Source: a virus | Taxonomy: Duplodnaviria > Caudoviricetes | Reading direction: 5' to 3' (one strand) | Length of the DNA stretch: 64,000 nucleotides | IMG/VR virus record: IMGVR_UViG_3300046167_000801 | In this document: in pieces, positions 20,249 through 46,255 of the stretch | Layout of the letters: every line of letters starts with the position of its first letter | Numbering within the stretch: position 1 is the stretch's first letter | Program-made: the position numbers and the translations under genes | Notes under the pieces: model-generated | Database searches by the model: none | The model's input: the letters and a program-made list of their open reading frames with translations, nothing else | What the model was told of the DNA's origin: nothing

Positions 20249-20257
20249 CACACTTAG

Positions 20258-20640
20258 TGGAGGTGGAGGGTTTCGAACCCTCGTCTTGCTCGTCCCAACC
20301 ATAGAGGACTACACGTTTAGGTCAATATCGATTCTCAATATTCCGAAATATGTGATTGAATTTTTACATCCTCCATCACCAATAGATGTACGACTCGATT
20401 TAAGGTTCAGTCGTTTTTCTACCTTTGTAAGACTTCTGTTCCTAGGTTATATGTCCCGACCCGTTGTAGAGATAACCTTAGGCTACCGCTACTTTAGAAT
20501 CAACAGATACAAGACCCATTAATCCCATTTGTGAATAAACGTCTCCGTCTAAAAAACATCTCCATAGATTTAAGTGATAGGAAATATCTCACTACGTGCC
20601 CTGTTATAATTGACTACGCCAATCAATTCCAGTCACCCCC
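20258..20640 (-). ncRNA. ssrA: tmRNA (transfer-messenger RNA)
   Basis: 5' GGGGGTGACTGGAATTGA pairs with 3' CACCTCC-A (G3:U Ala identity pair); T-arm GAGGG-TTCGAAA-CCCTC; internal tag ORF 20546-20478 GDVYSQMGLMGLVSVDSKVAVA* after TTAGAC resume context. Confidence 0.92.
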
Positions 20641-21995: not shown

Positions 21996-22072
21996 TGGTG
22001 GACCTTGATGGGCTCGAACCATCGACCTATCCGTTATGAGCGGAGTGCTCTAACCAACTGAGCTAAAAGTCC
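21996..22072 (-). tRNA. tRNA with CAT anticodon, most likely tRNA-Ile2
   Basis: GGACTTTTAGCTCAGTTGGTTAGAGCA...CTCATAA...GGTTCGAGCC...AAGGTCCACCA; acceptor stem resembles bacterial Ile2 rather than Met; CCA encoded. Confidence 0.9.
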
Positions 22073-22088
22073 TTTATTTAACACTTTG

Positions 22089-22162
22089 TGAACCCGGTAG
22101 GATTCGAACCTACGACCGTCTCCTTAGAAGGGAGATGCTCTATCCAGCTGAGCTACGAGTCC
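22089..22162 (-). tRNA. tRNA-Arg(TCT)
   Basis: Cloverleaf; anticodon arm TCTCC-CTTCTAA-GGAGA; no encoded CCA. Confidence 0.93.
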
Positions 22163-22166
22163 ATTT

Positions 22167-22255
22167 TGGTACCTCGGGCCGGGGTCGAACCGGCACGGAC
22201 ATTACTGTCCACAGGATTTTAAGTCCGGCGTGTCTACCAATTCCACCACCGAGGC
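22167..22255 (-). tRNA. tRNA-Leu(TAA)
   Basis: GCCTCGGTGGTGGAATTGGTAGACACG...CTTAAAA...long variable arm GGACAGTAATGTCC...ACCA. Confidence 0.93.
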
Positions 22256-22690: not shown

Positions 22691-22733
22691 AATTTTTAAT
22701 TTTAATTTAGTTTATGTCAAAGAACGATAGTTG

Positions 22734-22805
22734 TACTCCGTAGGAGAATCGAACTCCTATTACCAGGATGAAAACCTGGCGTCCTAACCGTTAGACGAAC
22801 GGAGC
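22734..22805 (-). tRNA. tRNA-Glu(TTC)
   Basis: GCTCCGTTCGTCTAACGGTTAGGACGCCAGG-TTTTCAT-CCTGG...GTTCGATTC...ACGGAGTA. Confidence 0.92.
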
Positions 22806-22891: not shown

Positions 22892-22995
22892 ACTTTATAA
22901 ATAATACGATTTTTTTTTCATTTAATCAAATGTAAATAACAAAGTATTTATAGTAAGGTCAAGTGATTGACCCATAAAAAGTAAAAATTAAAGTT

Positions 22996-23229
22996 ATGGC
23001 ATTTAAAGACTTATTTAAAGATGAAAACGACATCAACGAAAAATCAGTTGTAGGTTTTCTGTCATTCGCGATAATGGTTTTATTCGCGTTTGCTGATTTA
23101 CTTACAGGGTACTTTGGTAAGGACCTTGTAATTAATGAGTTTATTTATAACTCATTTGTAGTTATTACATTAGGTTCTTTTGGTATTGCTGAGGTTGGTA
23201 AGATCTTCGGTAAAAAAGGACAGGAATAA
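22996..23229 (+). CDS. Small two-TM membrane protein, holin-like
   Basis: Two hydrophobic helices, basic C-terminus, directly upstream of endolysin. Confidence 0.6.
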   Translation: MAFKDLFKDENDINEKSVVGFLSFAIMVLFAFADLLTGYFGKDLVINEFIYNSFVVITLGSFGIAEVGKIFGKKGQE

Positions 23230-23241
23230 AAAAATAAAATT

Positions 23242-24123
23242 ATGATTTTAAAAATTGGATCAAGAGGGAAAGAAGTCAAAGAACTTCAAGAATTTCTTGA
23301 AATCGGAGCGGATGGTATCTTCGGTTCAGGAACTGACTCATCAGTTAAAGAATGGCAGTCCAAAAATGGTTTGGGGGTTGACGGTATTGTCGGTCCTGCC
23401 ACTTGGGACGCTATGGGTCTTGCTACTACTGATAATTCAGAAAAAACGTATGAAACGGAAAACGGTTTGATAATAAACCGACATTTCTTACCTGTTGGTG
23501 AGTACAAACAAGGACCCACAAATAAAGAATACGCTTTTATACATCACACAGCGGGGTGGCATAACCCATACAATTGTATTGACCAATGGTCGAGAGATAG
23601 TAGGGGTGCAGTCGCAACCGAATTCGTATTAGGTGGTCAATCGGTTAAAGGAAATGACACTAAATATGACGGTGAAGTTGTACACGCGTTCCCTGAAGGA
23701 TCGTATGGTTGGCATTTAGGTAAAAACGGATCTCAACACATGCACACTCACTCGGTTGCTATTGAGGTATGTAACTTCGGTTATGTGAAAGATGGTAAAA
23801 CATATGCAGGTACAAGAGTTGCGGAAGATCAGATAGTTACATTATCACAACCATTCAGAGGTTACAAAGATTGGCATAGATACTCTGACAAACAAATTGA
23901 ATCACTACACAAATGGATTCTTTGGATATCTGAGAGAGATAGTATTGATGTACGTAAAGGTCTACCCGATCTTATTCGTAAGATAGGTGTATCTGCCTTT
24001 GAATTTCAAGAAGACGCATATTACGGAAGAGTTAAAGGACTATGGACACATACAAATACACGTAAGGATAAATCTGATATGTTCCCACAACAGGAACTTA
24101 TCGATATGTTGTTAAGTCTATAA
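23242..24123 (+). CDS. Endolysin: PG-binding domain + N-acetylmuramoyl-L-alanine amidase (Amidase_2)
   Basis: ADGIFGSGT...VDGIVGPATW; AFIHHTAG, GWHLG, SVAIEVCN, LWTHTN...KSD. Confidence 0.85.
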   Translation: MILKIGSRGKEVKELQEFLEIGADGIFGSGTDSSVKEWQSKNGLGVDGIVGPATWDAMGLATTDNSEKTYETENGLIINRHFLPVGEYKQGPTNKEYAFIHHTAGWHNPYNCIDQWSRDSRGAVATEFVLGGQSVKGNDTKYDGEVVHAFPEGSYGWHLGKNGSQHMHTHSVAIEVCNFGYVKDGKTYAGTRVAEDQIVTLSQPFRGYKDWHRYSDKQIESLHKWILWISERDSIDVRKGLPDLIRKIGVSAFEFQEDAYYGRVKGLWTHTNTRKDKSDMFPQQELIDMLLSL

Positions 24124-24144: not shown

Positions 24145-25344
24145 ATGAAAAATTTAATAAGATTTATCGTATTCTCTATTTTATGCACCAATGCGTATGG
24201 TCAAACTACTACAGTAAACATAAGGTCACTTAAGACTCATTACGGTGGGAATCAATCAGGTCAATATTATACAGGTAATGCTAATTCGCACTCAGAATTT
24301 GACGCTATGGTTAATCTTGCCGATGGCGGTACTACACTCTATACAGAAGGACCTGTAGATATAACAAGTTATCAAGGTCCAAGAGGTGGTAATCATACTC
24401 CTTATCAACTATGGAACCCACCAAGATGGAGTACTAATAGTGGAAGGTATGCAATTATTTATTCTGGTTGGTTTAAACCTAACAAATCAGGTACATATCG
24501 ATTTAGAACTTTCACAGATGACTCACATGAGTTTATGATTAAAGGTATTGGTAAGACTAATGATATAGTTACTAAACATTATGGTTGGAATGTATGGGCT
24601 TATGGTACGGCAACCCTAGATAAAACTGTATGGTATGAATTTGAATATAGAATACAGAATTTTGGTGGTATAGGTGCTGCAAATTTCCAATATGAAATAC
24701 CCGCTAACTACAATACAGGTCAATTTAATCAACTCAGTCCTAGTCATCCATTTGCAGAATGGTCTGCTACCGACCCTAACGCTGTACCAATCACGGCAAG
24801 TGGTTATATTAAAGGGGGAGAAGAACAAGGTATTGGAGGACAAACAGTTTATCTAAAGACACAGAATAAAAATCAAGTCGGTTTTTCATATACGACTCAA
24901 GCAACAACAACAACAGATTCAAATGGGTATTATTCTTTTAATACCACATTAAATTACAACGATTACGATTTTACAATAGATATTAATCCGTCATTAGGAA
25001 CACTTATAACCACAGATATAAATTGGTTTCAAGATAGATTATTATCAGACACATTCAGTTCAAAAGATTATTGGAGAATGGATGTGAATAATACAGGTTC
25101 GTTTTCTGTCTCTGATATCTATCTAATGCACCAGAGGAGACACGGTAACATTTCTAGTTACCCTGGTGGGGGACAAGAAATATGGAACACAAATTCTTGG
25201 CAAAACCCAACCATTTGGCCGGCAGTTGCTGCGGATTCAGACGATAAAACGATATACGTTGGTTACGGATCATGGTCTCTATTTGATTTAGCCAATGGAA
25301 ATCAGACAACATTCTATTTATTAAGAGTAGGACATAAAAATTAA
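24145..25344 (+). CDS. Exported protein: PA14 domain + Ig/Cna-B-like domain + dockerin-like domain
   Basis: Signal peptide AYG|Q; YSGWFKPNKSGTYRFRTFTDDSHEFMI (PA14); TTTTDSNGYYSF; RMDVNNTGSFSVSDIY. Confidence 0.75.
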   Translation: MKNLIRFIVFSILCTNAYGQTTTVNIRSLKTHYGGNQSGQYYTGNANSHSEFDAMVNLADGGTTLYTEGPVDITSYQGPRGGNHTPYQLWNPPRWSTNSGRYAIIYSGWFKPNKSGTYRFRTFTDDSHEFMIKGIGKTNDIVTKHYGWNVWAYGTATLDKTVWYEFEYRIQNFGGIGAANFQYEIPANYNTGQFNQLSPSHPFAEWSATDPNAVPITASGYIKGGEEQGIGGQTVYLKTQNKNQVGFSYTTQATTTTDSNGYYSFNTTLNYNDYDFTIDINPSLGTLITTDINWFQDRLLSDTFSSKDYWRMDVNNTGSFSVSDIYLMHQRRHGNISSYPGGGQEIWNTNSWQNPTIWPAVAADSDDKTIYVGYGSWSLFDLANGNQTTFYLLRVGHKN

Positions 25345-25362
25345 AAAAGTAAAAAAAAAACG

Positions 25363-26457
25363 ATGAAACTTAAAAACATTTTTCTAACACTATCTTTGCT
25401 AATTGGTACGATGACTGTCTTCGGGCAGACGACTTCACCTGACGCAACTAAACCTTATATTATCTTTGATTCAACTTACACTTTAGAATCCACCTCATCA
25501 ACCTCAAACACAACATTTGACATTTATTACGATAATACGTCGGGTAATGATGTTAAAGGTATTCAGTTTTCATTTAATTATGATAACACGGTATTTGATG
25601 AACCCACTTTAACATATAACAATACATCTGGCCCTGCCGGGTATTTGTCTTATGATGTCGATTCAACAAGTGGAGTTATAAAAGTGGTATGGGTTTATTC
25701 AGGATCATCTACCACTTTCGATATGATTGCGGGTAACATGTTTACAGTAAATGCCCCTTTTCTTTCTAACTATACAAACTCGGCAGTTGCGGACGTAGAT
25801 TTTACTACCGACCTTACCGCTTATTATGTAAAGTCTGATGGGACTGATGGGGTATTGGGTACACAAGATAATGGTGGTAATTTTATAGAACCGGCATTTG
25901 ATTATACCGCCACAATTCTAAATAGTGGGACAAATCCAGCAGACTCTATTGATGTAATATTACAAAAATCGTCAGATGGTTCGTCTTGGACAGATGTTAC
26001 CACAGTAACAACCAACTCGAATGGGGAGTCGGTGTTCTCAGAAAATTTAGATCAGGATTATTGGCAAATTAGACTCAAGATTGCAAGTGGTTTAGATGCG
26101 AGTACCGCACTATCAACTGCAGATGCTAATATGATCGCACAAATTGCTGCGGGGGTACAATCACCATCAGGAATTCAGTTCTATACTGCGAATACAAATC
26201 AAAATAATGGAATTACCGCATCGGATTCATATATGGTATTCTCTAGATTAGCACAAGGTAACTCAAGTTATTCTTCTAATCCAGATGTATTGTTCTTTAC
26301 TGAAGCACAGTATACTACTATTAGTAGTGCAACATCAGATCAGTCTAGTTCTATACCGGGTCTAACGGAGTTTTTATCTCCATTAATTAATAACACAACT
26401 ACGGGTAACTTCTACTTATTAATATTAGGAGATGCCAATGGAACAGGTTTAAATTAA
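25363..26457 (+). CDS. Exported protein: cohesin-like domain + Ig-like domain + dockerin-like domain
   Basis: Signal peptide VFG|Q; KGIQFSFNYDNTVF (cohesin-like); STADANMIAQ...YTANTNQNNGITASD...LLILGDANGTG. Confidence 0.7.
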   Translation: MKLKNIFLTLSLLIGTMTVFGQTTSPDATKPYIIFDSTYTLESTSSTSNTTFDIYYDNTSGNDVKGIQFSFNYDNTVFDEPTLTYNNTSGPAGYLSYDVDSTSGVIKVVWVYSGSSTTFDMIAGNMFTVNAPFLSNYTNSAVADVDFTTDLTAYYVKSDGTDGVLGTQDNGGNFIEPAFDYTATILNSGTNPADSIDVILQKSSDGSSWTDVTTVTTNSNGESVFSENLDQDYWQIRLKIASGLDASTALSTADANMIAQIAAGVQSPSGIQFYTANTNQNNGITASDSYMVFSRLAQGNSSYSSNPDVLFFTEAQYTTISSATSDQSSSIPGLTEFLSPLINNTTTGNFYLLILGDANGTGLN

Positions 26458-26458
26458 T

Positions 26459-27196
26459 ATGAGATTATTATTACTGACATTAGTATTAATATTCACAACA
26501 AGTGCACAATCTCAGGTCGTATTTAATGTACCTGAGATTGAAGTACCTGTAAGTGATTACATTAATCTACCCATAGAAATTGAAACTGAGGGTGAGATTG
26601 TCGGTAGTCTTGAATTTGCATTGAATTACGATCCAAACTATTTAGAGTTTGTGTCAATTACGGTGACACCCAAGGCACAGGAGTGGTTAACCTATACAAT
26701 GGACTGGGAAGGCGAAACTGTTAGATGGGGAGGTTATGATCCCTCCTTCGGTAATTTTACCATAATCAATACAACAGAATTATTTACGGTAAGATTTAAA
26801 GTTACTGATCAAAATTGGACAGAAATTCCAATTACAATAGGTAGGAAAACTGCGGGTACCGAATTAGGTTGGGATATTGAAGTTGAAAATACGGATGGGT
26901 ATGTTAATAAACGATCAATGCCTTTCGATACTAGACCTACTGACGGTATTTATGGGATTGTTTATCCAGTCCCAACTAAAGGTCCCATTACGTTCGACCT
27001 GACAGTACCAGATAATGGAGATTATATTATTAGAGTATTAAACTATGGGGGATTAGAATTTTTAAAAGAGAGGAAGTCTTTTTTCGCGGGATGGGTACAA
27101 TTTCAAATGGACTTATCTTCATTACCACAAGGTGTTTATCTCTTACATATTACTAACGGACAATTTGTAAAAACATTTAAAACAATAAAACAATGA
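26459..27196 (+). CDS. Exported cohesin-domain protein with T9SS type A C-terminal sorting domain
   Basis: Signal peptide AQS|Q; LPIEI...VGSLEFALNYDPNYLEFVSI (cohesin); VYPVPTKG...IRVLNYGG...MDLSSLPQGVYLLHI...KTFKTIKQ (T9SS CTD). Confidence 0.85.
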   Translation: MRLLLLTLVLIFTTSAQSQVVFNVPEIEVPVSDYINLPIEIETEGEIVGSLEFALNYDPNYLEFVSITVTPKAQEWLTYTMDWEGETVRWGGYDPSFGNFTIINTTELFTVRFKVTDQNWTEIPITIGRKTAGTELGWDIEVENTDGYVNKRSMPFDTRPTDGIYGIVYPVPTKGPITFDLTVPDNGDYIIRVLNYGGLEFLKERKSFFAGWVQFQMDLSSLPQGVYLLHITNGQFVKTFKTIKQ

Positions 27197-27450
27197 GTAA
27201 AAATAAAGGATTTTTTTCAGAAATTAAAAACCAAATAGTAACAGGTATTGGTTTAGTTATAACGGCGGGTTTCGGACTATTAATTGCTAACATGCAATCT
27301 GTATTTGAACCTAAAGAAGAAAAGGTAAATTTACCTGTCATGGAACAAAAAATAAATACCCCAAGTAGTATAAAGGATACTTTGGTAATAACTAAAACAA
27401 TTGTTATACCTCCTAAGAAAGAGAAAAAAGAAGAAGACATAACATGGTAA
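27193..27450 (+). CDS. Small single-TM membrane-anchored protein
   Basis: IVTGIGLVITAGFGLLIA TM; Pro/Lys/Glu-rich tail. Confidence 0.7.
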   Translation: MSKNKGFFSEIKNQIVTGIGLVITAGFGLLIANMQSVFEPKEEKVNLPVMEQKINTPSSIKDTLVITKTIVIPPKKEKKEEDITW

Positions 27451-28148
27451 GAATATTTTTAATTATATCGTTACTATTAAGTTTTACAGTTAAGGCTCAA
27501 TTAGGTAAAACAGAGACCGAAAATTATAAAGGTAAGTTTGAACAGGATATTGATATAGATGAGGTATCTGATTATATGTTAGATTACCAATTACCAATCC
27601 AAGTTTTAAATATTGGTTTTACACCGGAGTTATATGAATTTTACCCCGAATTAAGAGAAAATAGGGTGGGATTAGGTGTTAGTAACATAACTCTATCTTA
27701 TTTGGAATGGACTGATAGATTTTTATTTACGGAAGATAAAGAAGAAATTAAACAAAGAATGGTTAAACAACATAAGGCAGCTGCAAAAGGAATATCATCT
27801 AACGATATTAAGGTTGTGGGTAATGTTGTTTTAGCGGAGTATTTTGTTTATGTCGAAATATATGATTATTCGGTATCTGAAGAAGAGGAAGTTACAATTG
27901 ACGGGGTGAAGACCGTACTAAAAACTATTATTGGTATGCAGGTAAGATTTGTTAATGCTGAGAACGGTACCATTTTTACAGGAAGTGGAAGTGGTGAGGC
28001 GGTCACAATAAAAAGAACTAAAATTGGTTCCGTTAATGATGTAAAGTTCAATAAATCAACAATTGGTATTGCAACTAAAAAGGCGTTGGAATCTGGAACG
28101 GCTCGTATTGTAAAAAGAATGATTAAACGTGGGATATTTGAAGAATAA
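27444..28148 (+). CDS. CsgG/HfaB-like outer-membrane assembly/transport protein
   Basis: Signal peptide VKA|Q; VGLGVSNITLSYL..TDRF, AEYFVYVEIYDY, GMQVRFVNAENGTI, IGIATKKALE. Confidence 0.7.
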   Translation: MVRIFLIISLLLSFTVKAQLGKTETENYKGKFEQDIDIDEVSDYMLDYQLPIQVLNIGFTPELYEFYPELRENRVGLGVSNITLSYLEWTDRFLFTEDKEEIKQRMVKQHKAAAKGISSNDIKVVGNVVLAEYFVYVEIYDYSVSEEEEVTIDGVKTVLKTIIGMQVRFVNAENGTIFTGSGSGEAVTIKRTKIGSVNDVKFNKSTIGIATKKALESGTARIVKRMIKRGIFEE

Positions 28149-29478
28149 AATAATTGCGGTAATATTATTTTTATTACCATTGGTTGGTTACGGTCAGTGG
28201 TCCTACACGTTTACAGATCCCTGTACTTTAAATCAACAAACAATTCAGATGGGTTCAAGTGATGAAATTGTTCTGAATTATTTTGGTAACGTACAGACAT
28301 TCACACAGCTCGATTTTACTAATGGTACTTTTGATTCGTGGATGAACATAGTTACTCAATCTAACTCTTCAAACCCATGTCAAGAAATATCCCAAATAGT
28401 TACTAATAATACAAATGCAGTGATAGTTCAAAATACTATCACAGTAATTACAAATATAATGAGTGTTTTGGGTGGGGACATGTTACCACAGGCACTATCA
28501 TCATCAGGTGTCCCCGTGGCGGAGGCCATCGATAACGCATCAAAAAAGAAGAAGAAAAGAAAGAAGGGGAAGAATAATACTAAAACCGAAAATTCTAAAG
28601 AACAATCCGTAGGATCCAATAACAAAAGCGAGAATAGGGGTGAATCTAACAATAGTTCTGAACAGTCTAACGAATCAGGTTCTAATGAAACTAACGGTAG
28701 TCAAGGTAACACTAACGAAAACGGTACATCGACAGAAGGTAGTGAAACTGCGACTGAAGAGGAATCAAAAGAAGGTGGGTTAACCATGTCTTTGGCAAAT
28801 TCAGTTTCTAATGCAATAGATGGTGGAGAGTCAGACAATAAAAATAGAGGTTCACTAATAGCATCAGGAGATATCGTGGTTATTGATAACCAAGACAATT
28901 CGAATGGTCGACAAATAAAAGTGGTAGGATCTATTACAAGTGCGAATACAAAAAAGAGTAGAGTCCAAGGTGCGTTATTTACATACACAACCGTAACTAA
29001 TGATTTTAGTTTAACTTTCTACAAATCATGGATAAACCCAAATAGGACATTTAATTTAGTGGGTGCAAACACCACGATGACCAACTTTGATCAAAACCAT
29101 TTAAATACAACTACTGTTTTAGAATCATTTAAGTTTGGTAAAAAGAAATTTACGGGTATGGTGGGTGCTAATTTTACAATAGGTAAATTAGGTAAAAGAG
29201 AATTACAAAATCTATCCGCAGTCAGTGGTATTCATAGAAACTTTAGAGTAACTCCGAAGATCACAACATCGGCTCTAATATTGGGGGTGTATTCTCCATT
29301 CACACAGTATTATGAGGGTCAGTGGTGGGACCCTGGATTATTAATAGTACCATTTAGTTCTTGGGATATTCAAATCACAAAAACATTTAAATATAACATC
29401 AGTTTTACGGGAGTTTGGCAATCGGGAGGTAATGCATTAAACTATCAAGTTCTGACTGGTGGTAAAATCAGATTTTAA
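28129..29478 (+). CDS. Putative outer-membrane beta-barrel protein with S/N/E/G-rich linker
   Basis: Signal peptide GYG|Q; low-complexity linker; alternating beta strands; C-terminal aromatic ...GGKIRF (BAM-type signal). Confidence 0.6.
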   Translation: MGYLKNKIIAVILFLLPLVGYGQWSYTFTDPCTLNQQTIQMGSSDEIVLNYFGNVQTFTQLDFTNGTFDSWMNIVTQSNSSNPCQEISQIVTNNTNAVIVQNTITVITNIMSVLGGDMLPQALSSSGVPVAEAIDNASKKKKKRKKGKNNTKTENSKEQSVGSNNKSENRGESNNSSEQSNESGSNETNGSQGNTNENGTSTEGSETATEEESKEGGLTMSLANSVSNAIDGGESDNKNRGSLIASGDIVVIDNQDNSNGRQIKVVGSITSANTKKSRVQGALFTYTTVTNDFSLTFYKSWINPNRTFNLVGANTTMTNFDQNHLNTTTVLESFKFGKKKFTGMVGANFTIGKLGKRELQNLSAVSGIHRNFRVTPKITTSALILGVYSPFTQYYEGQWWDPGLLIVPFSSWDIQITKTFKYNISFTGVWQSGGNALNYQVLTGGKIRF

Positions 29479-29480
29479 TT

Positions 29481-29918
29481 ATGAAAAATTTACTAATACT
29501 CTTATTATTCCCAACCCTATTATTTTCACAGGTTGATTGTTATTCTATTAAATCAGTAACCACTGAAATTGAAATGGAAGAAATCAGTAAAAGAAGGATT
29601 ACATTCGGTATAAAACAGATGATGGAAGACATTATCTCAGATAAATACAATTTATGTATGGATGGTAAACCGATTGATGTTATTGTACAATCAATAGAGT
29701 CCCCTCAAACAGGGATCCAACTTGGTCCATGGACGAAAGTGAGTAAAAAAACAATTGTTACTTTACTGATCTACATGGACGGGGAAGTGATTGAGGTGGA
29801 AGGAAGAGCCAAATCTACGGTAGAGTCCACATTTATAGATTTACAAAATGATGATATACCTTTTGATAAGACAACATTTTCATCCGCTGTTAAGAAGGCA
29901 ATAGAAAAGGGGATATAA
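29481..29918 (+). CDS. Exported protein, probable short CsgG/TolB_N-like fold
   Basis: Signal peptide LFS|Q; C-terminal TTFSSAVKKAIE parallels STIGIATKKALE of 27444-28148. Confidence 0.55.
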   Translation: MKNLLILLLFPTLLFSQVDCYSIKSVTTEIEMEEISKRRITFGIKQMMEDIISDKYNLCMDGKPIDVIVQSIESPQTGIQLGPWTKVSKKTIVTLLIYMDGEVIEVEGRAKSTVESTFIDLQNDDIPFDKTTFSSAVKKAIEKGI

Positions 29919-29948
29919 AAAAACCCCAACAAGGTTTGCTGGGGTTTT
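29917..29948. terminator. Bidirectional terminator
   Basis: AAAAAAACCCC...GGGGTTTT. Confidence 0.8.
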
Positions 29949-30063: not shown

Positions 30064-32079
30064 TTAAATCAGGGGAATATTTTTTGATAATTCCATGTTT
30101 CCGTCTTTAATTTTTAAGATGAAATCGGAATTCTCCGTAATCTCACCTTCTAAAATCTTATCACTTATAAAATCCTCACACAGGTTTTGTATGATTCGTT
30201 TTATTGGTCTCGCACCATACTCTTCTTCAGAATTTCTATTTAAAACTTCTTGACTTACACTACGATCAAATTTTATTTTGTAATCACTCTCGATAAGTCT
30301 TTTTGATAATTTATTTAACTCGATAGTGATAATTTTTTTAAGTGACTTATCTTGTAGTTTATTGAATACAATAATATCATCGATTCTATTTAAGAATTCA
30401 GGACTAAATTTTTGTTTCAATGATTTTTTAATGATTGAGTCTTTTACTTTAGCCCTATCACCGTCAGATGTAAAACCTACACCCCCACCAAAATCGGCAA
30501 CTTTCTTAGCACCGACGTTCGACGTCATTATTATCAAAGTATTAGTAAAATTTACTTTCCTACCAAATGAATCTGTTAACCTACCCTCATCCAATATTTG
30601 AAGTAGGATATTGAAGACATCTTTATGTGCCTTTTCTATTTCGTCAAATAAGACAACTGAAAATGGATTATTCTTAATTTTCTCGGTTAACTGACCACCT
30701 TCTTCAAATCCGACATAACCCGGAGGAGACCCAATTAGTTTGGAAACATTGTGTTTTTCCATGAATTCACTCATATCTACCCTTATAATCTTGTCGGGAT
30801 CTCCAAATAAGGTATTGGCTAATGTTTTTGCTAAGTGTGTTTTACCCACACCAGTAGATCCTAAGAACATGAAAGAACCAATAGGTTTATTATGACCCTT
30901 AACACCAACCCTATTTCTTCTTATTGATTTTGATATGATCTCAACGGCATCGTCTTGTCCAATAACATTTTTGGATATTGTTTTCTCTAAAGATAATAGT
31001 GATTTGGTTTCCTTAGTATCTAATTTATTAATTGGTACCCCTGTGATGTCGGTAATAATATTATAAACATCGTCCACTGAAATAGGTTTCTTATTTAGTT
31101 GTTGTTCTTTATTCCATTTTTTCTTTTCATTATCTAATTTCTTGAGGATCTTTCTTTCTTGATCTCTAAGGTTTGCTGCCTTTTCGTAATCCTGATTCTT
31201 TACAACTTCTAATTTTTTAATTCTAATAGATTCACAACTTTTTTTCAGTTTCTCTATAGATTCTGGTATCTTAATATTTATTTTTTTCTGTGATCCTAAT
31301 TCATCCAAAACATCGATAGCCTTATCAGGGAATTGTTTGTCCGTAATAAATCGTTTACATAACTTCACAATAGTTTCAATTACGTCTTTTTGATAATCGA
31401 CTCTATGATAGTCCTCATAAGAATCTTTTAAATTCTTTAAAATATCGATAGTTTCTACCGTTGTCGGTTCTTCTAATATAATCTTTTGGAATCTTCTTAC
31501 AAGAGCACCGTCCTTCTCAATATTTTTCTTATACTCATCGAAAGTGGTTGCCCCTATACATTGTATCTCACCTCTTGCAAGTGCCGGTTTAAGTATGTTA
31601 GCGGCATCCATAGAACCCGAAGCGTTACCCGCACCAACCATGGTGTGTATCTCGTCAATGAAAATAATCACATTAGGTGCGTCTTGTAGTTCGTTTAGAA
31701 TTACTTTAATTCTTTCTTCAAATTGACCTCTATATTTTGTCCCCGCAACTAAAGACGTTAAATCCAACGACATAATCCTTTTATCTAAAAGATTGGTAGG
31801 ACAGTTACCCGCACTTATAAGTAGTGCAAGTTTTTCCACTAATGCGGATTTACCAACTCCCGCTTCACCAACAATGACAACATTGTTTTTCTTTTTACGA
31901 GATAATATTTGTGCAATACGATGTACCTCTTTATCTCTACCAATGATAGGATCGATATCCCCATCTAATGCTAATTGTGTTAGGTCTCGTGAAAAATTAT
32001 CTAAAACTGGCGTCTTACTACCTTTCTTACCTCTTTTACTTTGGGACTGTGTTCCCTCTTCGAAAAAATCTACTGACAT
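30064..32079 (-). CDS. clpC: ClpC-like Hsp100 AAA+ ATPase lacking the N-terminal Clp_N domain
   Basis: Two AAA modules (GEAGVGKS; GSTGVGKT), IDEIH, UVR middle domain QDYEKAANLRD, ClpP-docking-type VGF loop. Confidence 0.9.
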   Translation of the reverse strand: MSVDFFEEGTQSQSKRGKKGSKTPVLDNFSRDLTQLALDGDIDPIIGRDKEVHRIAQILSRKKKNNVVIVGEAGVGKSALVEKLALLISAGNCPTNLLDKRIMSLDLTSLVAGTKYRGQFEERIKVILNELQDAPNVIIFIDEIHTMVGAGNASGSMDAANILKPALARGEIQCIGATTFDEYKKNIEKDGALVRRFQKIILEEPTTVETIDILKNLKDSYEDYHRVDYQKDVIETIVKLCKRFITDKQFPDKAIDVLDELGSQKKINIKIPESIEKLKKSCESIRIKKLEVVKNQDYEKAANLRDQERKILKKLDNEKKKWNKEQQLNKKPISVDDVYNIITDITGVPINKLDTKETKSLLSLEKTISKNVIGQDDAVEIISKSIRRNRVGVKGHNKPIGSFMFLGSTGVGKTHLAKTLANTLFGDPDKIIRVDMSEFMEKHNVSKLIGSPPGYVGFEEGGQLTEKIKNNPFSVVLFDEIEKAHKDVFNILLQILDEGRLTDSFGRKVNFTNTLIIMTSNVGAKKVADFGGGVGFTSDGDRAKVKDSIIKKSLKQKFSPEFLNRIDDIIVFNKLQDKSLKKIITIELNKLSKRLIESDYKIKFDRSVSQEVLNRNSEEEYGARPIKRIIQNLCEDFISDKILEGEITENSDFILKIKDGNMELSKNIPLI

Positions 32080-37202: not shown

Positions 37203-38978
37203 ATGGATAAACATAAACTCATACAGTTAAAGGAATACGCGAAGATCATGAAAGATACTCCGTATGCACTTAAAACATATTTAACCACGTATGATAATAC
37301 ACAAAAGAAATATGTACCATTAGAGTTATTTCCAGACCAAGTTGAATTAATTAAAGACTACGACAACTATAATGAAAATATAACTCGTAAGTATAGACAG
37401 GCGGGTGTATCTACTGTAACCGCAGCTTGGTTATCTAAACGTATACAAACCGCAAAACCCGAAAACCCAGAAAGAATACTTATTATCGCTAACAAGAGAG
37501 ATACTGCGATAGAAATGGCTAATAAAGTTAGAGGTTTTTTAGATCAATGGCCAGAATGGATTAACGTTGGGTTTTCACCTGATAAAAATTCTGAAAGTAG
37601 GTATCGTATGAATAACGGATGTGAGGTTAAGGCGGTTGCGACATCTGCCGATGCACTTCGTGGTTATACACCAACAGTATTGGTTTTTGATGAGGCTGCA
37701 TATATTGAAGCGGGAGAAGATTTTTGGGCGGCTTGTATGGCCTCCTTATCTACGGGTGGTAAAGTAATACTTATATCCACACCTAACGGACATGACCCAA
37801 TTTATTATGGGGTATATGATCAGGCGTTACGAGGTATGAATGATTTTAAAATAACCGATTTAAGATGGTTTAAAGATCCAAGATATGCCAGTGACTTAAA
37901 ATGGATTAAAGTAGACGATATCATACATTATATGTTGAATAGAGAACAATATAATGATGATGAAATAATTTTAGAACAGGGTTGGGAAGGATATGAAGAA
38001 TTACTCGAGAAAGGATACAAACCGTACTCTCATTGGTTTGAGAATATGGCAAAAAAATTCAAGTATGACAAAAGAAAAATCGCACAAGAATTGGAGTGCG
38101 ACTTCCTCGGTTCTGGTGATGGTGTTATCCCAAATACAATACAAGACAGGATAAGAAAAACCATGATAAAGGATCCAATGGAAAAATACATGCAGGGTAC
38201 TTTTTGGTTATGGAAGGAACCTGTTGAGGGTCATAGATATATAATGGGTGTTGACGTATCTCGTGGAGATAGTGCTGACTCGTCATCAATATGTGTGATT
38301 GATTTTGATGAAAACGAACAGGTTGCGGAATATGTGGGTAAGATTCCACCAGATGATTTGGCATCGATAGTTTATAAATGGGGTACACTTTATAAGGCGT
38401 TTGTCGCTACAGACATAACGGGGGGTATGGGTATTGCAACATCACGTAAACTACAGGAAATGGGTTATAAGGACCAATATATTGACGGGGTGAACTCAAA
38501 TAATATTTGGCAATACAATAAGAAGGCACAGGAAAAAATACCTGGTATTAATTTTAATAACAAACGAACACAAATAGTTGCGTCTTTTGAAGAAAAACTT
38601 AGACATGGATTTATAGTTAAGTCATCTCGATTATTAAATGAATTAAACACGTTTGTTTATATAAACGGTAGACCTAACCACATGAAGGGGGCACATGATG
38701 ATGCAATCATGGCGATGGCCATTGCAATGTACGTGGGTGATATATGTTTCACTCAACTAAAGAGAAACGATAGCGCAAACAAAGCAATGTTAGACTCATG
38801 GTTACTCTCAGAAAGGACTTATGAAACAAAAAAATCTTTCTATTCTCATGGAACCGCGTTCGATGCTGTCGGATCTATGACTACTGACGGACAACCATAT
38901 AACCCATCTAATCAAAATATCAGTAAGGACCAATACATGGAACATAGTTGGTTATTTAGTAAAAGAGGTTATAGATAA
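37203..38978 (+). CDS. terL: Terminase large subunit (T4 gp17-like)
   Basis: KYRQAGVST Walker A, LVFDEAAYI Walker B, ISTPNG, QELECDF, GVDVSRG, HDDAIMA nuclease motifs. Confidence 0.95.
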   Translation: MDKHKLIQLKEYAKIMKDTPYALKTYLTTYDNTQKKYVPLELFPDQVELIKDYDNYNENITRKYRQAGVSTVTAAWLSKRIQTAKPENPERILIIANKRDTAIEMANKVRGFLDQWPEWINVGFSPDKNSESRYRMNNGCEVKAVATSADALRGYTPTVLVFDEAAYIEAGEDFWAACMASLSTGGKVILISTPNGHDPIYYGVYDQALRGMNDFKITDLRWFKDPRYASDLKWIKVDDIIHYMLNREQYNDDEIILEQGWEGYEELLEKGYKPYSHWFENMAKKFKYDKRKIAQELECDFLGSGDGVIPNTIQDRIRKTMIKDPMEKYMQGTFWLWKEPVEGHRYIMGVDVSRGDSADSSSICVIDFDENEQVAEYVGKIPPDDLASIVYKWGTLYKAFVATDITGGMGIATSRKLQEMGYKDQYIDGVNSNNIWQYNKKAQEKIPGINFNNKRTQIVASFEEKLRHGFIVKSSRLLNELNTFVYINGRPNHMKGAHDDAIMAMAIAMYVGDICFTQLKRNDSANKAMLDSWLLSERTYETKKSFYSHGTAFDAVGSMTTDGQPYNPSNQNISKDQYMEHSWLFSKRGYR

Positions 38979-39038: not shown

Positions 39039-40850
39039 ATGGCAAAACAAAATATGACAGTGTATCAAAGGTTAACAAAGGTTTTCGGTTTTACCGCAGA
39101 CCAACCTTCGAAACCCCCACAATATAAATTTGATAGAGACCAACTGTTAAAAACAGATAGTAGAGAAGATTATGAAAAGGAACTTCTCCAACAACAACAA
39201 TCTCAATATATTGCAGATAAGTGGTCTAAATTAGATCAATCATTATATAATCAATCGGTTTATTATGAACCAAATAGATTAGCAGCGTATTATGATTATG
39301 AGTCTATGGAATTTACACCGGAAATTTCTGCGGCTTTAGATATATATTCTGAAGAATCAACAACCCTTTCAGAAAAGGGGGATATACTTACAATTTATTC
39401 AGAGTCAAAAAGGGTAAAAAACATACTCACAGATCTTTTTGAGAATATATTAGACGTAAACACTAACCTACAAATGTGGTGTAGAGGTTTAGGTAAGTAC
39501 GGTGATAACTTCGTTTATTTAAAAATAGATCCTGAAAGAGGTGTAGTTGGGTGTCAACAATTACCTAACATAGAAATAGAACGACATGAAGGTGCAGCGT
39601 CCAACGTACATAAAGCGGAACCATCGTCAAATGTTACAATGCCAAGTAGAGAACTGAGATTCGCGTGGAAAAATAAAGACATGGAGTTCCAAGCATGGGA
39701 AGTCGCACACTTTAGATTATTAGGGGACGATAGAAAATTACCTTATGGTACGTCAATGTTAGATAAGGTAAGACGTATATGGAAACAATTACTACTTGCA
39801 GAAGATGCAATGTTAATATACAGAACATCAAGAGCACCCGAAAGAAGAGTATTTAAAGTATTCGTGGGTAACATGGATGATAAAGACATTGAATCTTATG
39901 TACAACGTGTGGCAAACAAATTCAAAAGAGATCAGGTTGTTGACCCACAAAATGGACAAGTAGACATGAGGTACAACCAAATGGCTGTAGACCAAGATTA
40001 CTTTATTCCTGTTAGAGATCCGGGTCAAACTTCACCAATTGAAACATTACCAGGAGCACAGAACTTAGGTGAGATTGCAGATATTGAGTACATTCAAAAG
40101 AAGATGTTAGCCGCTCTTAGAATACCCAAAGCATTCTTAGGATTTGAGGAAATCGTTGGTGACGGTAAGACATTGGCACTAATGGACATACGTTTTGCAA
40201 GAACTATTAATAGAATTCAAAAATCCTTAATCCAAGAACTAAACAAAATTGCATTAGTTCATCTTTACTTATTAGGTTTAGAGGACGAGTTGGATAATTT
40301 TACATTATCCCTTACTAATCCATCCGCACAATCTGATTTATTAAAAGTAGAACAATGGAAAGAAAAGATAACACTTTATAAAGATGCAACATCAGATCAA
40401 TCACAGATAGGTATACAACCTGTTTCACATACATGGGCTAAGAAAAACATCTTAGGTATGAGTGATAACGATGTGGTTCTTGATTTACAACAACAAAGAC
40501 TCGAACGTGCACTTGGTGGTGAATTAGGGGCTACACCTAACATTATAAAAAGAACGGGCGTGTTTGATGAAGTTGATAAGAAGTATGGTATACCTGAGGA
40601 GGAGAGACAATCTATGGACACTTCCTCACCTGTTGAAGGAGATGAAATGGGAGGTGCACCACCCCCACCAGCAGGAGACATAGGAGGTGAAGAACCTCTT
40701 AGTGAAGGGACAGGAAAATCAAATAAATCTAAAATATTAAGTATGTTAGGTGATGAATCACAAGATTTTGATGATCTTTTTGATGTTAATAAGGCACAAC
40801 AGAATATTTATGAAGTAGAGAATAAACTCAAAGACATATTAAACGACTAA
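39039..40850 (+). CDS. gp20: Portal protein (T4 gp20-like)
   Basis: MEFTPEISAALDIY, PYGTSML..RRIWKQL, EDAMLIYR..RAPERRVF, DYFIPVR, IETLPGAQNL, DIEY. Confidence 0.95.
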   Translation: MAKQNMTVYQRLTKVFGFTADQPSKPPQYKFDRDQLLKTDSREDYEKELLQQQQSQYIADKWSKLDQSLYNQSVYYEPNRLAAYYDYESMEFTPEISAALDIYSEESTTLSEKGDILTIYSESKRVKNILTDLFENILDVNTNLQMWCRGLGKYGDNFVYLKIDPERGVVGCQQLPNIEIERHEGAASNVHKAEPSSNVTMPSRELRFAWKNKDMEFQAWEVAHFRLLGDDRKLPYGTSMLDKVRRIWKQLLLAEDAMLIYRTSRAPERRVFKVFVGNMDDKDIESYVQRVANKFKRDQVVDPQNGQVDMRYNQMAVDQDYFIPVRDPGQTSPIETLPGAQNLGEIADIEYIQKKMLAALRIPKAFLGFEEIVGDGKTLALMDIRFARTINRIQKSLIQELNKIALVHLYLLGLEDELDNFTLSLTNPSAQSDLLKVEQWKEKITLYKDATSDQSQIGIQPVSHTWAKKNILGMSDNDVVLDLQQQRLERALGGELGATPNIIKRTGVFDEVDKKYGIPEEERQSMDTSSPVEGDEMGGAPPPPAGDIGGEEPLSEGTGKSNKSKILSMLGDESQDFDDLFDVNKAQQNIYEVENKLKDILND

Positions 40851-44542: not shown

Positions 44543-46255
44543 ATGGGAGCATTATTAGAATCAGGTATGGTTGGTAACATCGGGTTAAAACACCTAAGAG
44601 TTATCAAAGAAGATACCATCAAAAAATGGGATGACCTAGGTTTCTTAGAGGGACTTAATGGACATCAAAAAGATAACATCGCTCAGTTGTATGAAAACCA
44701 AGCGTCTTATCTAATTAACGAAGCTGCTGTGTCTGACTCATCAGGTTCATTCGAAACAGTTGTTTTTCCAATCATTAGAAGAGTATTCTCTAAATTATTG
44801 GCAAACGATATCGTTTCTGTACAAGCTATGAACTTACCAATTGGTAAATTGTTCTACTTTGTACCTAAAATTGCAGAAAGAGCTGGCGGTACTGGTCATA
44901 CAGCACCTTACGCATCTCCAGGTCAAGACGCAAACGGAGACTTCACAGGGACTAACCTTTATGATAGATTTTATGAAGAAGGTGATGACGCTGCAGAAGG
45001 TATCTACGATTACTCAAAAGGTAAATTTTCTGTACAAGATTTAGCAGGATCGGCAGTTGTAGTATTTAACGAAGGTATTGCTACAGATGCTGGTACTATG
45101 GCAGCAGGAGAACAATCAAGTGTAATTGTTAAGTTTGGAGGATTCTCTAAATTAGGATCAGGTAAACTTGCGGGACCTAACGGTAACGAAATGGATACTG
45201 AAGAATTTTTGGCATCATTAGATATCAAAAACTCGGCTATTAAGGCTGGTAACTTACCTTTTAACGTTGTAACTCAGAAATACGGAAGTGGTATTGTTGA
45301 GTACGGTGCTAAAGGAACAGGTGCTGCAGGTGGTCAATATCCAGATATCGTTGATAAAGATGGTGTAATCTACTTACAGATTGATCTTGAAGATTATACA
45401 CCGGCATCAGGTTATACAAAATTTGACGCAGCAGGAACTGAAGCGGCATCAGGTTTTACAGGAACTTACAGACAATACGCTACATTAGAATTCGAAGATG
45501 AAATCGGAGAAGTATCTTTCGATTTAGATTCTGTAACAGTTTCTGTTACTGAAAGAAAACTAAGAGCTAGCTGGTCTCCTGAATTGGCTCAGGATGTATC
45601 TGCTTTCCATAACATCGACGCTGAGGCTGAGTTAACAGCATTGTTATCTGAGCAAATCGCGGCTGAGGTTGATAGAGAGATCTTAAGAGACTTAAGAAAA
45701 GGTGCAGCTTGGAACCTTAAATGGGACTACAATGAGTGGAAATATGGTGGAAACGGAAACGCAACACTACAAGGATACACTCAAAAGGATTGGAACCAAA
45801 CGTTAATTACTAAAATTAACCAATTATCGGCTCAAATCCATAAAACTACACTTAGAGGTGGTGCTAACTGGATCGTTGTTTCTTCTGAAGTTTCAGCTGT
45901 ATTCGATGACTTAGAGTACTTCCACGTATCTAACGCAGGTGCAGAACAAGATCAGTACAATATGGGTATTGAGAAAGTTGGTACTTTAGCAGGAAGATAC
46001 CAAGTGTATAGAGATCCTTACTTCCCAGCGGGTAAAGTATTGGTTGGACATAAAGGAAAGTCGTTGTTAGACGCAGGGTACATTTACGCACCTTACGTAC
46101 CGTTACAACTTACACCTACAATGTACAATCCATTCAACTTTACACCGATCAAGGGTATCATGACGAGATACGCTAAGAAAATGGTTAATAACCGTTACTT
46201 CGGTGTGATCAACGTTGCAGGATTACAAACATTCAACTTAGATACTTTAAGATAA
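44543..46255 (+). CDS. gp23: Major capsid protein (T4 gp23-like)
   Basis: ANDIVSVQAMNLP, RKLRASWSPELAQD, IDAEAEL, EVDREI, YAPYVPL, GIMTRYA. Confidence 0.97.
   Translation: MGALLESGMVGNIGLKHLRVIKEDTIKKWDDLGFLEGLNGHQKDNIAQLYENQASYLINEAAVSDSSGSFETVVFPIIRRVFSKLLANDIVSVQAMNLPIGKLFYFVPKIAERAGGTGHTAPYASPGQDANGDFTGTNLYDRFYEEGDDAAEGIYDYSKGKFSVQDLAGSAVVVFNEGIATDAGTMAAGEQSSVIVKFGGFSKLGSGKLAGPNGNEMDTEEFLASLDIKNSAIKAGNLPFNVVTQKYGSGIVEYGAKGTGAAGGQYPDIVDKDGVIYLQIDLEDYTPASGYTKFDAAGTEAASGFTGTYRQYATLEFEDEIGEVSFDLDSVTVSVTERKLRASWSPELAQDVSAFHNIDAEAELTALLSEQIAAEVDREILRDLRKGAAWNLKWDYNEWKYGGNGNATLQGYTQKDWNQTLITKINQLSAQIHKTTLRGGANWIVVSSEVSAVFDDLEYFHVSNAGAEQDQYNMGIEKVGTLAGRYQVYRDPYFPAGKVLVGHKGKSLLDAGYIYAPYVPLQLTPTMYNPFNFTPIKGIMTRYAKKMVNNRYFGVINVAGLQTFNLDTLR

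Follow-up and report, generated by a model that had tools for sequence, protein, structure and literature searches.

The stretch of viral DNA analysed here (IMG/VR record IMGVR_UViG_3300046167_000801; Duplodnaviria, Caudoviricetes; 64,000 nucleotides, referred to at its full length as the window) contains between positions 24145 and 29918 seven genes, named g1 to g7, which recur as a set in related phages. We interpret them as an accessory cassette of large Flavobacteriia phages, whose products may form a lectin-tipped chain that is held together by cohesin-dockerin pairs and anchored through the host's type IX secretion system (T9SS), accompanied by a partner module in the envelope. We consider the case for and against this interpretation to be evenly balanced. 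The seven open reading frames (ORFs) occupy one strand (+), with an inter-gene spacing of +18, +1, -4, -7, -20 and +2 nt. A previous reading of the sequence alone had described them as close-packed and co-oriented, and the ORF list agrees in both coordinates and strand. The start codon of g6 is a GTG at 28129 that is retained in relatives. The genes and their predicted domains are:

24145-25344, + strand: g1; signal peptide, putative PA14-like lectin domain, immunoglobulin (Ig)-like domain, dockerin-like module (about 25009-25341)
25363-26457, + strand: g2; signal peptide, putative cohesin-like domain (25429-25887), Ig-like domain, dockerin-like module (26089-26454)
26459-27196, + strand: g3; signal peptide, cohesin (26522-26842), T9SS type A C-terminal sorting domain (CTD; 26960-27193)
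27193-27450, + strand: g4; bitopic membrane protein of 85 amino acids (aa) with an N-terminal transmembrane (TM) segment, a charged, Pro-rich periplasmic tail and a conserved C-terminal Trp
27444-28148, + strand: g5; CsgG-family periplasmic or outer-membrane protein
28129-29478, + strand: g6; signal peptide, N-terminal domain of ~90 aa, low-complexity linker, predicted C-terminal outer-membrane beta-barrel (28849-29475), last residue Phe
29481-29918, + strand: g7; signal peptide, truncated paralogue of the CsgG family in which a Cys pair is conserved

The arrangement of the seven genes is far beyond chance, as the same gene set recurs both in the loci found with g5 and in those found with the g2 module. 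Among viral contigs, 39 loci were detected with g5, and the set is kept in all of them that have sufficient flanking sequence. With the g2 module, 190 viral contig stretches were matched, 80 of which were kept for analysis, and it is these 80 that our statements on the full gene set cover. Every locus with enough flank has g3 (or a fusion), g5, g6, g7 and a g1-like gene, and equivalents of g4 are present as well. The expectation that the cluster would be conserved in phages is thus borne out by both synteny scans. Two architectures occur: in one, represented by the phage studied here, g1 is located upstream and g2 and g3 are separate genes, whereas in the other g2 and g3 are fused and a g1-like gene follows downstream. 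The fusions are in-frame, encode proteins of ~630-670 aa with a single CTD, and belong to a divergent lineage (loci L030-L039 and L109-L138). That such a fusion exists in nature indirectly suggests a joint action of g2 and g3.

All seven products are predicted to be targeted to export or to a membrane. Six of them, all but g4, begin with a hydrophobic core that is followed by a small residue and Gln, and in the six families this junction is kept in 18/18, 28/30, 21/22, 33/33, 27/28 and 25/28 of the homologues with intact N-termini; the call is a test for this sequence pattern, not the output of a signal-peptide predictor. The seventh product, g4, has one N-terminal TM segment and no junction of this type. 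Conservation of the pattern across homologues upholds the earlier description of six signal peptides followed by Gln and a seventh protein acting as a TM anchor.

The proposed base of the chain is g3. Its residues 22-128 match Pfam Cohesin (PF00963) with 37.5 bits (cut-off 24.1, E 3.3e-9), and a fused g2-g3 homologue in locus L045 also matches this family (E 5.3e-9). Residues 168-245 match Por_Secre_tail (PF18962) with 32 bits (cut-off 27, E 1.6e-7), and at the very C-terminus of this signal-peptide protein there is a match to TIGR04183 (T9SS type A) with 28.9 bits (cut-off 23, E 8.4e-7). No other protein of the cassette carries a T9SS CTD. A cohesin joined to a sorting domain, in a single subunit of the set, had been proposed at the outset, and both parts of that proposal now rest on matches above the family cut-offs. 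In two phage-like contigs, binned with Sediminibacterium and Flavobacterium (L047:4572-6696 and L048:4409-6575), the protein with the cohesin (589-597 aa) has no sorting domain and its gene is followed by that of a separate lipoprotein of 118-123 aa with a weak Por_Secre_tail match, as though the CTD had been split off.

The C-terminal modules of g1 and g2 are homologous (hhalign probability 98.6%, E 1.2e-15, 107 columns), so confirming that they are paralogous, as had been suspected. In g1 and in divergent g2 homologues, the shared module has one clear calcium-binding-type loop (D-x-N-x-D/N-G...D) with a helix behind it and a degenerate loop in front. Of the 100 named ESM Atlas clusters nearest to the g2 module in protein-language-model features, 80 carry Dockerin_1 (score 0.94, 195-200 shared features), and the g1 homologue in locus L010 matches Pfam Dockerin_1 below threshold (E 0.0052, 17.4 bits against a cut-off of 22.9). 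Together with the homology of the two modules, these matches sustain the term "dockerin-like" of the sequence-only reading; we use it for a module that resembles dockerins, not for a proven dockerin. The N-terminal domain of g2 has cohesins as its best matches in a profile search of the PDB (4ums, E 0.021; 5lxv, E 0.11). Both proteins have a central Ig-like domain, for which Pfam gives weak matches to SdrD_B/CarboxypepD_reg or Big_1.

The N-terminus of g1 is PA14-like, although marginally so. Pfam PA14 (PF07691) matches over 46 residues with 16.5 bits, which is below the cut-off of 24 (E 0.0078), and the top PDB matches of the g1 profile are PA14 proteins (E 0.11-0.23). The resemblance pointed out earlier therefore stands, while membership in the PA14 family is not established. 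In related phages the head of g1 is swapped among PA14, GEVED, C-type lectin (Lectin_C) and Laminin_G_3 domains, with the Ig-like and dockerin-like parts being kept. This is the pattern expected of a tip that determines specificity, and g1 appears to start with an interchangeable predicted glycan-binding domain.

We envisage that the products of the cassette would assemble into a complex within the infected cell's envelope. In such a complex, g3 would cross the outer membrane via the T9SS of the host and remain on the surface, the dockerin-like module of g2 would plug into the cohesin of g3, and the dockerin-like module of g1 would plug into the cohesin-like domain of g2, resulting in a chain with g1 as the lectin tip, g2 as the adaptor and g3 as the anchored base. 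The order of tip, adaptor and base gains indirect support from the g2-g3 fusions and from the swapping of lectin domains in g1. The partner module in the envelope would consist of g4 as an inner-membrane anchor, g5 and g7 as periplasmic CsgG-like proteins and g6 as a barrel; it may provide a route or platform for the subunits without a CTD, or may tie the complex to the cell wall. For g1 and g2, both a piggy-back passage on g3 and a passage via the g5-g7 module are possible. A bolder version, for which we see only a slim prospect, is that g2, having a cohesin-like and a dockerin-like end, polymerises head to tail into a non-covalent fibre that is capped by the lectin g1 and rooted by the T9SS-anchored g3. 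Around the time of lysis, such fibres would serve to keep neighbouring host cells close or to cover receptors on debris. This would be an adhesive organelle built by the phage, its lectin head being exchanged as host glycans change.

Of the proteins in the partner module, g5 alone, as found in the window, has no family match in Pfam or in the other family-profile searches, and an exhaustive profile search among 1.84 billion representatives returned just 274 relatives. At the level of the family, 20 of 33 diverse members match Pfam CsgG (PF03783; best 1.9e-17) and 6 match LpoB, and an alignment of the family profile with E. coli CsgG is collinear across 227 columns (hhalign probability 91.9%, E 6.9e-7). 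By these profile comparisons g5 belongs to the CsgG family, in agreement with the original CsgG-like call. Searches of the PDB with profiles from shallow and deep alignments gave neither CsgG nor any other credible match to g5. Most of the distant cellular members have a lipobox, as do 6 of 33 phage homologues, while the g5 of the window has a junction of the signal peptidase I type, with no Cys and no lipobox. The alignment of g7 with the g5 family (hhalign probability 96%, E 3.9e-9, 120 columns) reveals a truncated paralogue without the central helical segment, so that the second CsgG-like fold postulated for the cassette is accounted for; BLASTP connects g5 and g7 at the C-terminal helix (E 2e-4). 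Families of CsgE, CsgF and curlin gave no hit in any cassette protein in the Pfam/profile searches.

The periplasmic part of g4 is of low complexity and rich in Pro, Lys and Glu. In divergent loci the gap between g3 and g5 is filled by g4 equivalents of 98-112 aa, which have an N-terminal TM segment, a Pro/Ala/Gln-rich tail and the ending ...E[ES/P]W. Additional genes occur in this region in some loci. A 1.3-kb insert between g4 and g5 (L091:11433-12688, L103:11373-12596) encodes a TM protein of 87-89 aa and an Ala/Glu/Val-rich repetitive protein of 318-327 aa that ends in NWF. Some cassettes of the fused type have, as an insert next to g4, a gene for another small TM protein, of 116-134 aa (L115:8803-9153, L124:11673-12077), and in L133, L134 and L136 a holin-like gene occupies a position like that of this insert.

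The N-terminal domain of g6 comprises ~90 aa, among which two Cys are conserved; after it come a hydrophobic helix that is likewise conserved, a linker of low complexity and an all-beta C-terminal domain. In the AlphaFold2 model, residues 242-447 are all-beta with 13 strand segments (predicted local distance difference test, pLDDT, about 70-80). Nearly all Foldseek matches in the PDB are outer-membrane barrels, and VIA-align gives Z scores of 12-16.5 to CymA, EspP, OmpG, NalP, KdgM, PorV and FapF alike. We conclude that g6 ends in a predicted outer-membrane barrel of 12-14 strands, to which no specific barrel family can be assigned. The beta-barrel ending in Phe that had been read from the sequence is thus supported by modelling, and a terminal Phe or Leu is conserved among the homologues. 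The linker varies about fourfold in length, from ~50 to ~200 residues, and its composition shifts from Lys-rich to Ser/Asn/Gly-rich or Thr/Gln-rich among otherwise conserved homologues. A PDB profile search with g6 matched only low-complexity proteins, the proteins listed by a homologue search were all at least 94% identical and none had Pfam families, and the barrel-family leads from the ESM Atlas were all below 0.9.

A related gene group exists outside phages. In contigs of metagenome-assembled genomes (MAGs) of Cloacimonadota, Desulfobacterota, Nitrospinota and Ignavibacteriales (L049, L050, L053, L055-L060), a g5-like lipoprotein adjoins a CsgG-family lipoprotein that matches the g7 profile, and a protein of ~325-450 aa that ends in an aromatic residue and has no Pfam match is encoded nearby. 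The triad of Cloacimonadota lies directly behind two T9SS cargo genes. Exact-protein look-ups of the cellular g5 relatives led to contigs of 1-2 kb only. A comparison of g6 with the barrels beside cellular g5-like genes was not significant (hhalign probability 2.5%), and homology of these barrels is unproven. From the sequences, the g5-g7 part appears to resemble an uncharacterised cellular module, and the cohesin-dockerin-lectin part appears specific to the phage cassettes seen here.

Several observations weigh against the scaffold that we propose. Pfam Dockerin_1 (PF00404) has no match at E<=1 in the g1 or g2 of the window, and the profile of the g2 C-terminal module has no hit in the PDB at E<=10, thus no dockerin. 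At ~120 aa the module is nearly double the size of a canonical dockerin, with an extra beta-rich part of ~60 aa. Support for the cohesin-like domain of g2 is marginal: the best PDB match is at E 0.02, the alignment with the g3 cohesin is weak (hhalign probability 12%, E 0.0024) and Pfam gives no cohesin match, so that the earlier designation of this domain as a cohesin is retained as a likeness to cohesin structures and not beyond that. The lack of a CTD in g1 and g2 is a difficulty for their passage through the outer membrane. The fold model of g5, from 20 close sequences, is poor (pLDDT 44.5). The g5 segments that correspond to the two membrane hairpins of CsgG are ~6 and ~11 residues shorter in the hhalign alignment and acidic, one containing a run of Glu, for which reason a canonical CsgG-type pore appears doubtful; the earlier CsgG/HfaB-like assignment holds for family membership and is in doubt for the full-length membrane hairpins. 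In about half of 75 loci, holin-like and/or endolysin genes are no more than 1 kb away from the cassette, which may point to a different purpose. Finally, the contigs from RNA libraries described below may stem from DNA carry-over and cannot prove transcription or a single transcript.

The problem of the CTD-less subunits could be solved if g5, g7 and g6 formed a secretion channel of their own in the outer membrane (curli/type VIII-like or FapF-like) that exports g1 and g2, with the T9SS serving g3 only and the chain being assembled outside the cell. The collinearity of g5 with CsgG would fit such a channel, as would the FapF- or autotransporter-like layout of g6 (VIA Z 12.2-12.5 to FapF, 15-16 to EspP), the restriction of the CTD to g3 and the fact that both gene sets are always linked. 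We nevertheless judge a dedicated channel to be decidedly unlikely. The hairpin segments of g5 are short and Glu-rich, and the barrel likeness of g6 is generic, with CymA, OmpG and PorV scoring alike. Also, g1 and g2 are folded multi-domain proteins, unlike the unfolded subunits of curli and Fap, and the fused lineage places g2 on the CTD of g3 yet retains g5-g7.

The lysis genes next to the cassette bear on its timing and purpose. Upstream of g1 the window has the following features, which lie outside the seven genes:

22945-22952, + strand: TATTTATA motif, candidate late promoter, preceding the holin-like gene
22996-23229, + strand: ORF for a holin-like protein of 77 aa with two TM segments
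23242-24123, + strand: endolysin with PG_binding_1 and Amidase_2 domains (Pfam E 5.6e-14 and 3.7e-8), matching PHROG endolysin families

The TATTTATA motif occurs in 24 copies in the window, compared with 14.6 expected, a mild enrichment, and 2 of 100 shuffles reach 24. It is often found 10-50 nt upstream of the starts of structural genes (16954; 37191, terminase; 42399; 51151, minus strand), a weak hint that phages of this group may use it as a late promoter element. In metatranscriptome libraries of two studies there are contigs whose first position falls at 22955-22964, and one such contig (22964-24336) joins the holin-like gene, the endolysin gene and the start of g1. Identical short metatranscriptome contigs from three studies lie on g1-g4 and g6. 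Coverage of g5, g7 and much of g6 by RNA-library contigs is poor or absent and is uninformative on expression. Taken together, these data give weak support to late expression along with the lysis genes. Superinfection exclusion early in infection had been among the roles suggested for the cassette; given its frequent position beside lysis genes and the RNA-library contigs that bridge from the endolysin into g1, a late, lysis-linked action fits at least as well.

The main rival to surface display is a device for lysis or egress, in which g4 in the inner membrane, g5 and g7 in the periplasm and g6 in the outer membrane would join holin and endolysin in acting on the outer membrane or on the timing of lysis. 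The lectin chain would then be auxiliary, for example by holding or marking wall or membrane. Besides the bridging contig and the proximity of lysis genes, which takes at least five forms (among them lysis genes upstream, lysis genes downstream, the endolysin gene by itself, and a holin-like gene inside the cassette in L133, L134 and L136), such a device is favoured by the candidate late motif, which near the cassette occurs only upstream of the holin-like gene, by the overlap of g4 and g5, a common feature of spanin gene pairs, and by the proposal of Buchholz et al. (PMC9004378) that phage CsgG affects lysis timing. Against it, phage immuto and many other loci have no lysis gene within 8-10 kb, the cassette being located among replication genes. 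The proteins also differ from a two-component spanin, as the periplasmic part of g4 is not a coiled coil and g5, unlike o-spanins, is a globular 215-aa CsgG-family protein without a lipobox. No known lysis mechanism uses lectin, cohesin, dockerin or T9SS signals, and homologous cellular triads exist outside phages. We therefore consider a lysis device unlikely, although it deserves serious attention and would be compatible with late surface display.

If the cassette does serve surface display, the probable late timing and the variability of the lectin suggest a purpose that we regard as the most likely one, although it is speculative. At a late stage the infected cell, or the debris it leaves, might bind surface glycans of the host type and so mask receptors on debris or hold neighbouring hosts, the latter being the "sibling capture" put forward for curli genes of phages (PMC7029224). 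One could also imagine an auxiliary metabolic aid, which captures polysaccharide or recruits dockerin-bearing enzymes of the host to the infected cell to feed phage production. The hosts do degrade polysaccharides, the head domains of g1 are of carbohydrate-binding types, and glycoside hydrolases have been reported among the T9SS cargo of phages (PMC7468147). Such an aid is nonetheless very improbable in our view, as no enzyme domain is present in the seven proteins or in the variant cassettes, and probable late expression leaves little time for nutritional gain.

The arrangement proposed for the surface scaffold is that of cellulosome scaffolds, with a cohesin in g3, a cohesin-like and a dockerin-like part in the adaptor g2, a dockerin-like part in the cargo g1, and an architecture of tip, adaptor and anchored base. 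It differs from them by being encoded by a phage, by its anchor, which is a T9SS sorting domain and not S-layer homology (SLH) or sortase, and by a cargo that is a predicted lectin and not an enzyme; its ~120-aa dockerin-like module is below Pfam detection, and the pairing with cohesin is putative. Literature searches found no description of a cohesin-dockerin system in phages. The claim that no phage system of this kind has been described holds for the cassette as a whole and has to be relaxed for its parts, for which precedents are published (PMC7468147, PMC7029224, PMC9004378). "Cryophage" (Bellas et al. 2020, PMC7468147) is a Bacteroidota phage with T9SS type A sorting-domain proteins, among them a PA14 protein, and its cargo varies between variants; there, each cargo, enzymes included, has its own CTD, and the description includes no partners of the cohesin/dockerin, CsgG-like or barrel kind. 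Pelagimyophages (HTVC008M group) and methylophage Melnitz have CsgG/CsgF clusters of unknown role (PMC7029224, PMC9004378), and the hypotheses published for phage curli/CsgG genes are "sibling capture" (PMC7029224) and lysis timing (PMC9004378). These are likewise large marine myophages with CsgG-family genes in a small operon of exported proteins. Their clusters have CsgG of the proteobacterial type and CsgF, whereas here CsgF is absent, g5 is below Pfam detection with short hairpins, and this CsgG-like protein is joined, in Bacteroidota phages, to a barrel, a truncated paralogue and a cohesin-dockerin-lectin set.

With the curli CsgG of E. coli (type VIII) the g5 family shares its collinear sequence and, in many members, a lipobox; the differences are the short, acidic hairpins, the signal peptidase I site of the g5 in the window, and the lack of curlin-like subunits, CsgE and CsgF. 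Autotransporter beta-domains and FapF resemble g6, in which a disordered linker connects the N-terminal domain to a C-terminal barrel whose last residue is Phe (VIA Z 12-16), but g6 is without sequence similarity to them and the fold match is generic. None of the three partial precedents (cellulosome-type scaffolds, "Cryophage" and the CsgG/CsgF clusters) combines these elements, and the cassette would represent a cohesin-dockerin surface scaffold in a new setting.

Should the interpretation as a scaffold be correct, large marine and freshwater Flavobacteriia phages would remodel the host surface by means of a plug-and-socket lectin display relying on the host T9SS. Such a display would add a new class to the accessory functions of phages, bearing on superinfection, on the loss of progeny to debris and on the aggregation of particles and cells in the turnover of algal blooms, and it would suggest a function for the uncharacterised cellular triad (two CsgG-family proteins and a barrel) of several phyla. 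The cohesin-dockerin pairs and swappable lectins could serve as surface-display parts in Bacteroidota. A cultured phage-host pair exists with phage immuto on Flavobacterium sp. LMO8.

That the cassette belongs to a phage is clear from its surroundings. PHROG profiles identify genes for the large terminase (37203-38978), portal (39039-40850) and major head protein (44543-46255), which lie 7-15 kb downstream of it in the same window and lay to rest the initial concern about a chimeric host segment. In DNA and protein searches, the Flavobacterium phages vB_FspM_immuto (160 kb) are the sole cultured relatives, with immuto26A_13 to _19 being syntenic with g1-g7. Near-identical copies of the cassette are found on contigs of ~250 kb, for which reason the source, a marine phage, is probably a jumbo phage of Flavobacteriia. 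Some of these contigs are binned into MAGs of Flavobacteriaceae and Bacteroidota, as might be expected if the segment were host DNA or a chimeric assembly. We find this hardly conceivable: besides the structural genes that share the window, its GC content is uniform along the whole length, the complete genome of the isolated phage immuto has the cassette, as do 190 IMG/VR stretches, and the MAG contigs, at ~250 kb, are similar to other viral contigs that carry it.

The cassette is bordered downstream by two further features:

29920-29948, unstranded: 13-bp hairpin separating the convergent g7 and ClpB-like genes
30064-32079, - strand: full-length ClpB/ClpA-like double AAA+ ATPase (PHROG 4871, E 5e-241), convergent with the cassette

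A terminator had been placed at 29917. The hairpin found at 29920-29948 confirms such a structure; it is scored on the minus strand, and on the plus strand it is followed by just four T. In view of this short tail we regard it as a probable bidirectional terminator. The ClpB-like gene adjoins the cassette in the closest relatives (L002-L005, L021) and not elsewhere. On the other side, directly upstream of the lysis genes, there are a transfer-messenger RNA (tmRNA; ARAGORN tag VDSKVAVA*) and genes for four tRNAs (Met, Arg, Leu, Glu), at 20257-20640, 21996-22255 and 22733-22805, all on the minus strand. These tmRNA/tRNA sites draw many RNA-library contigs of other organisms.

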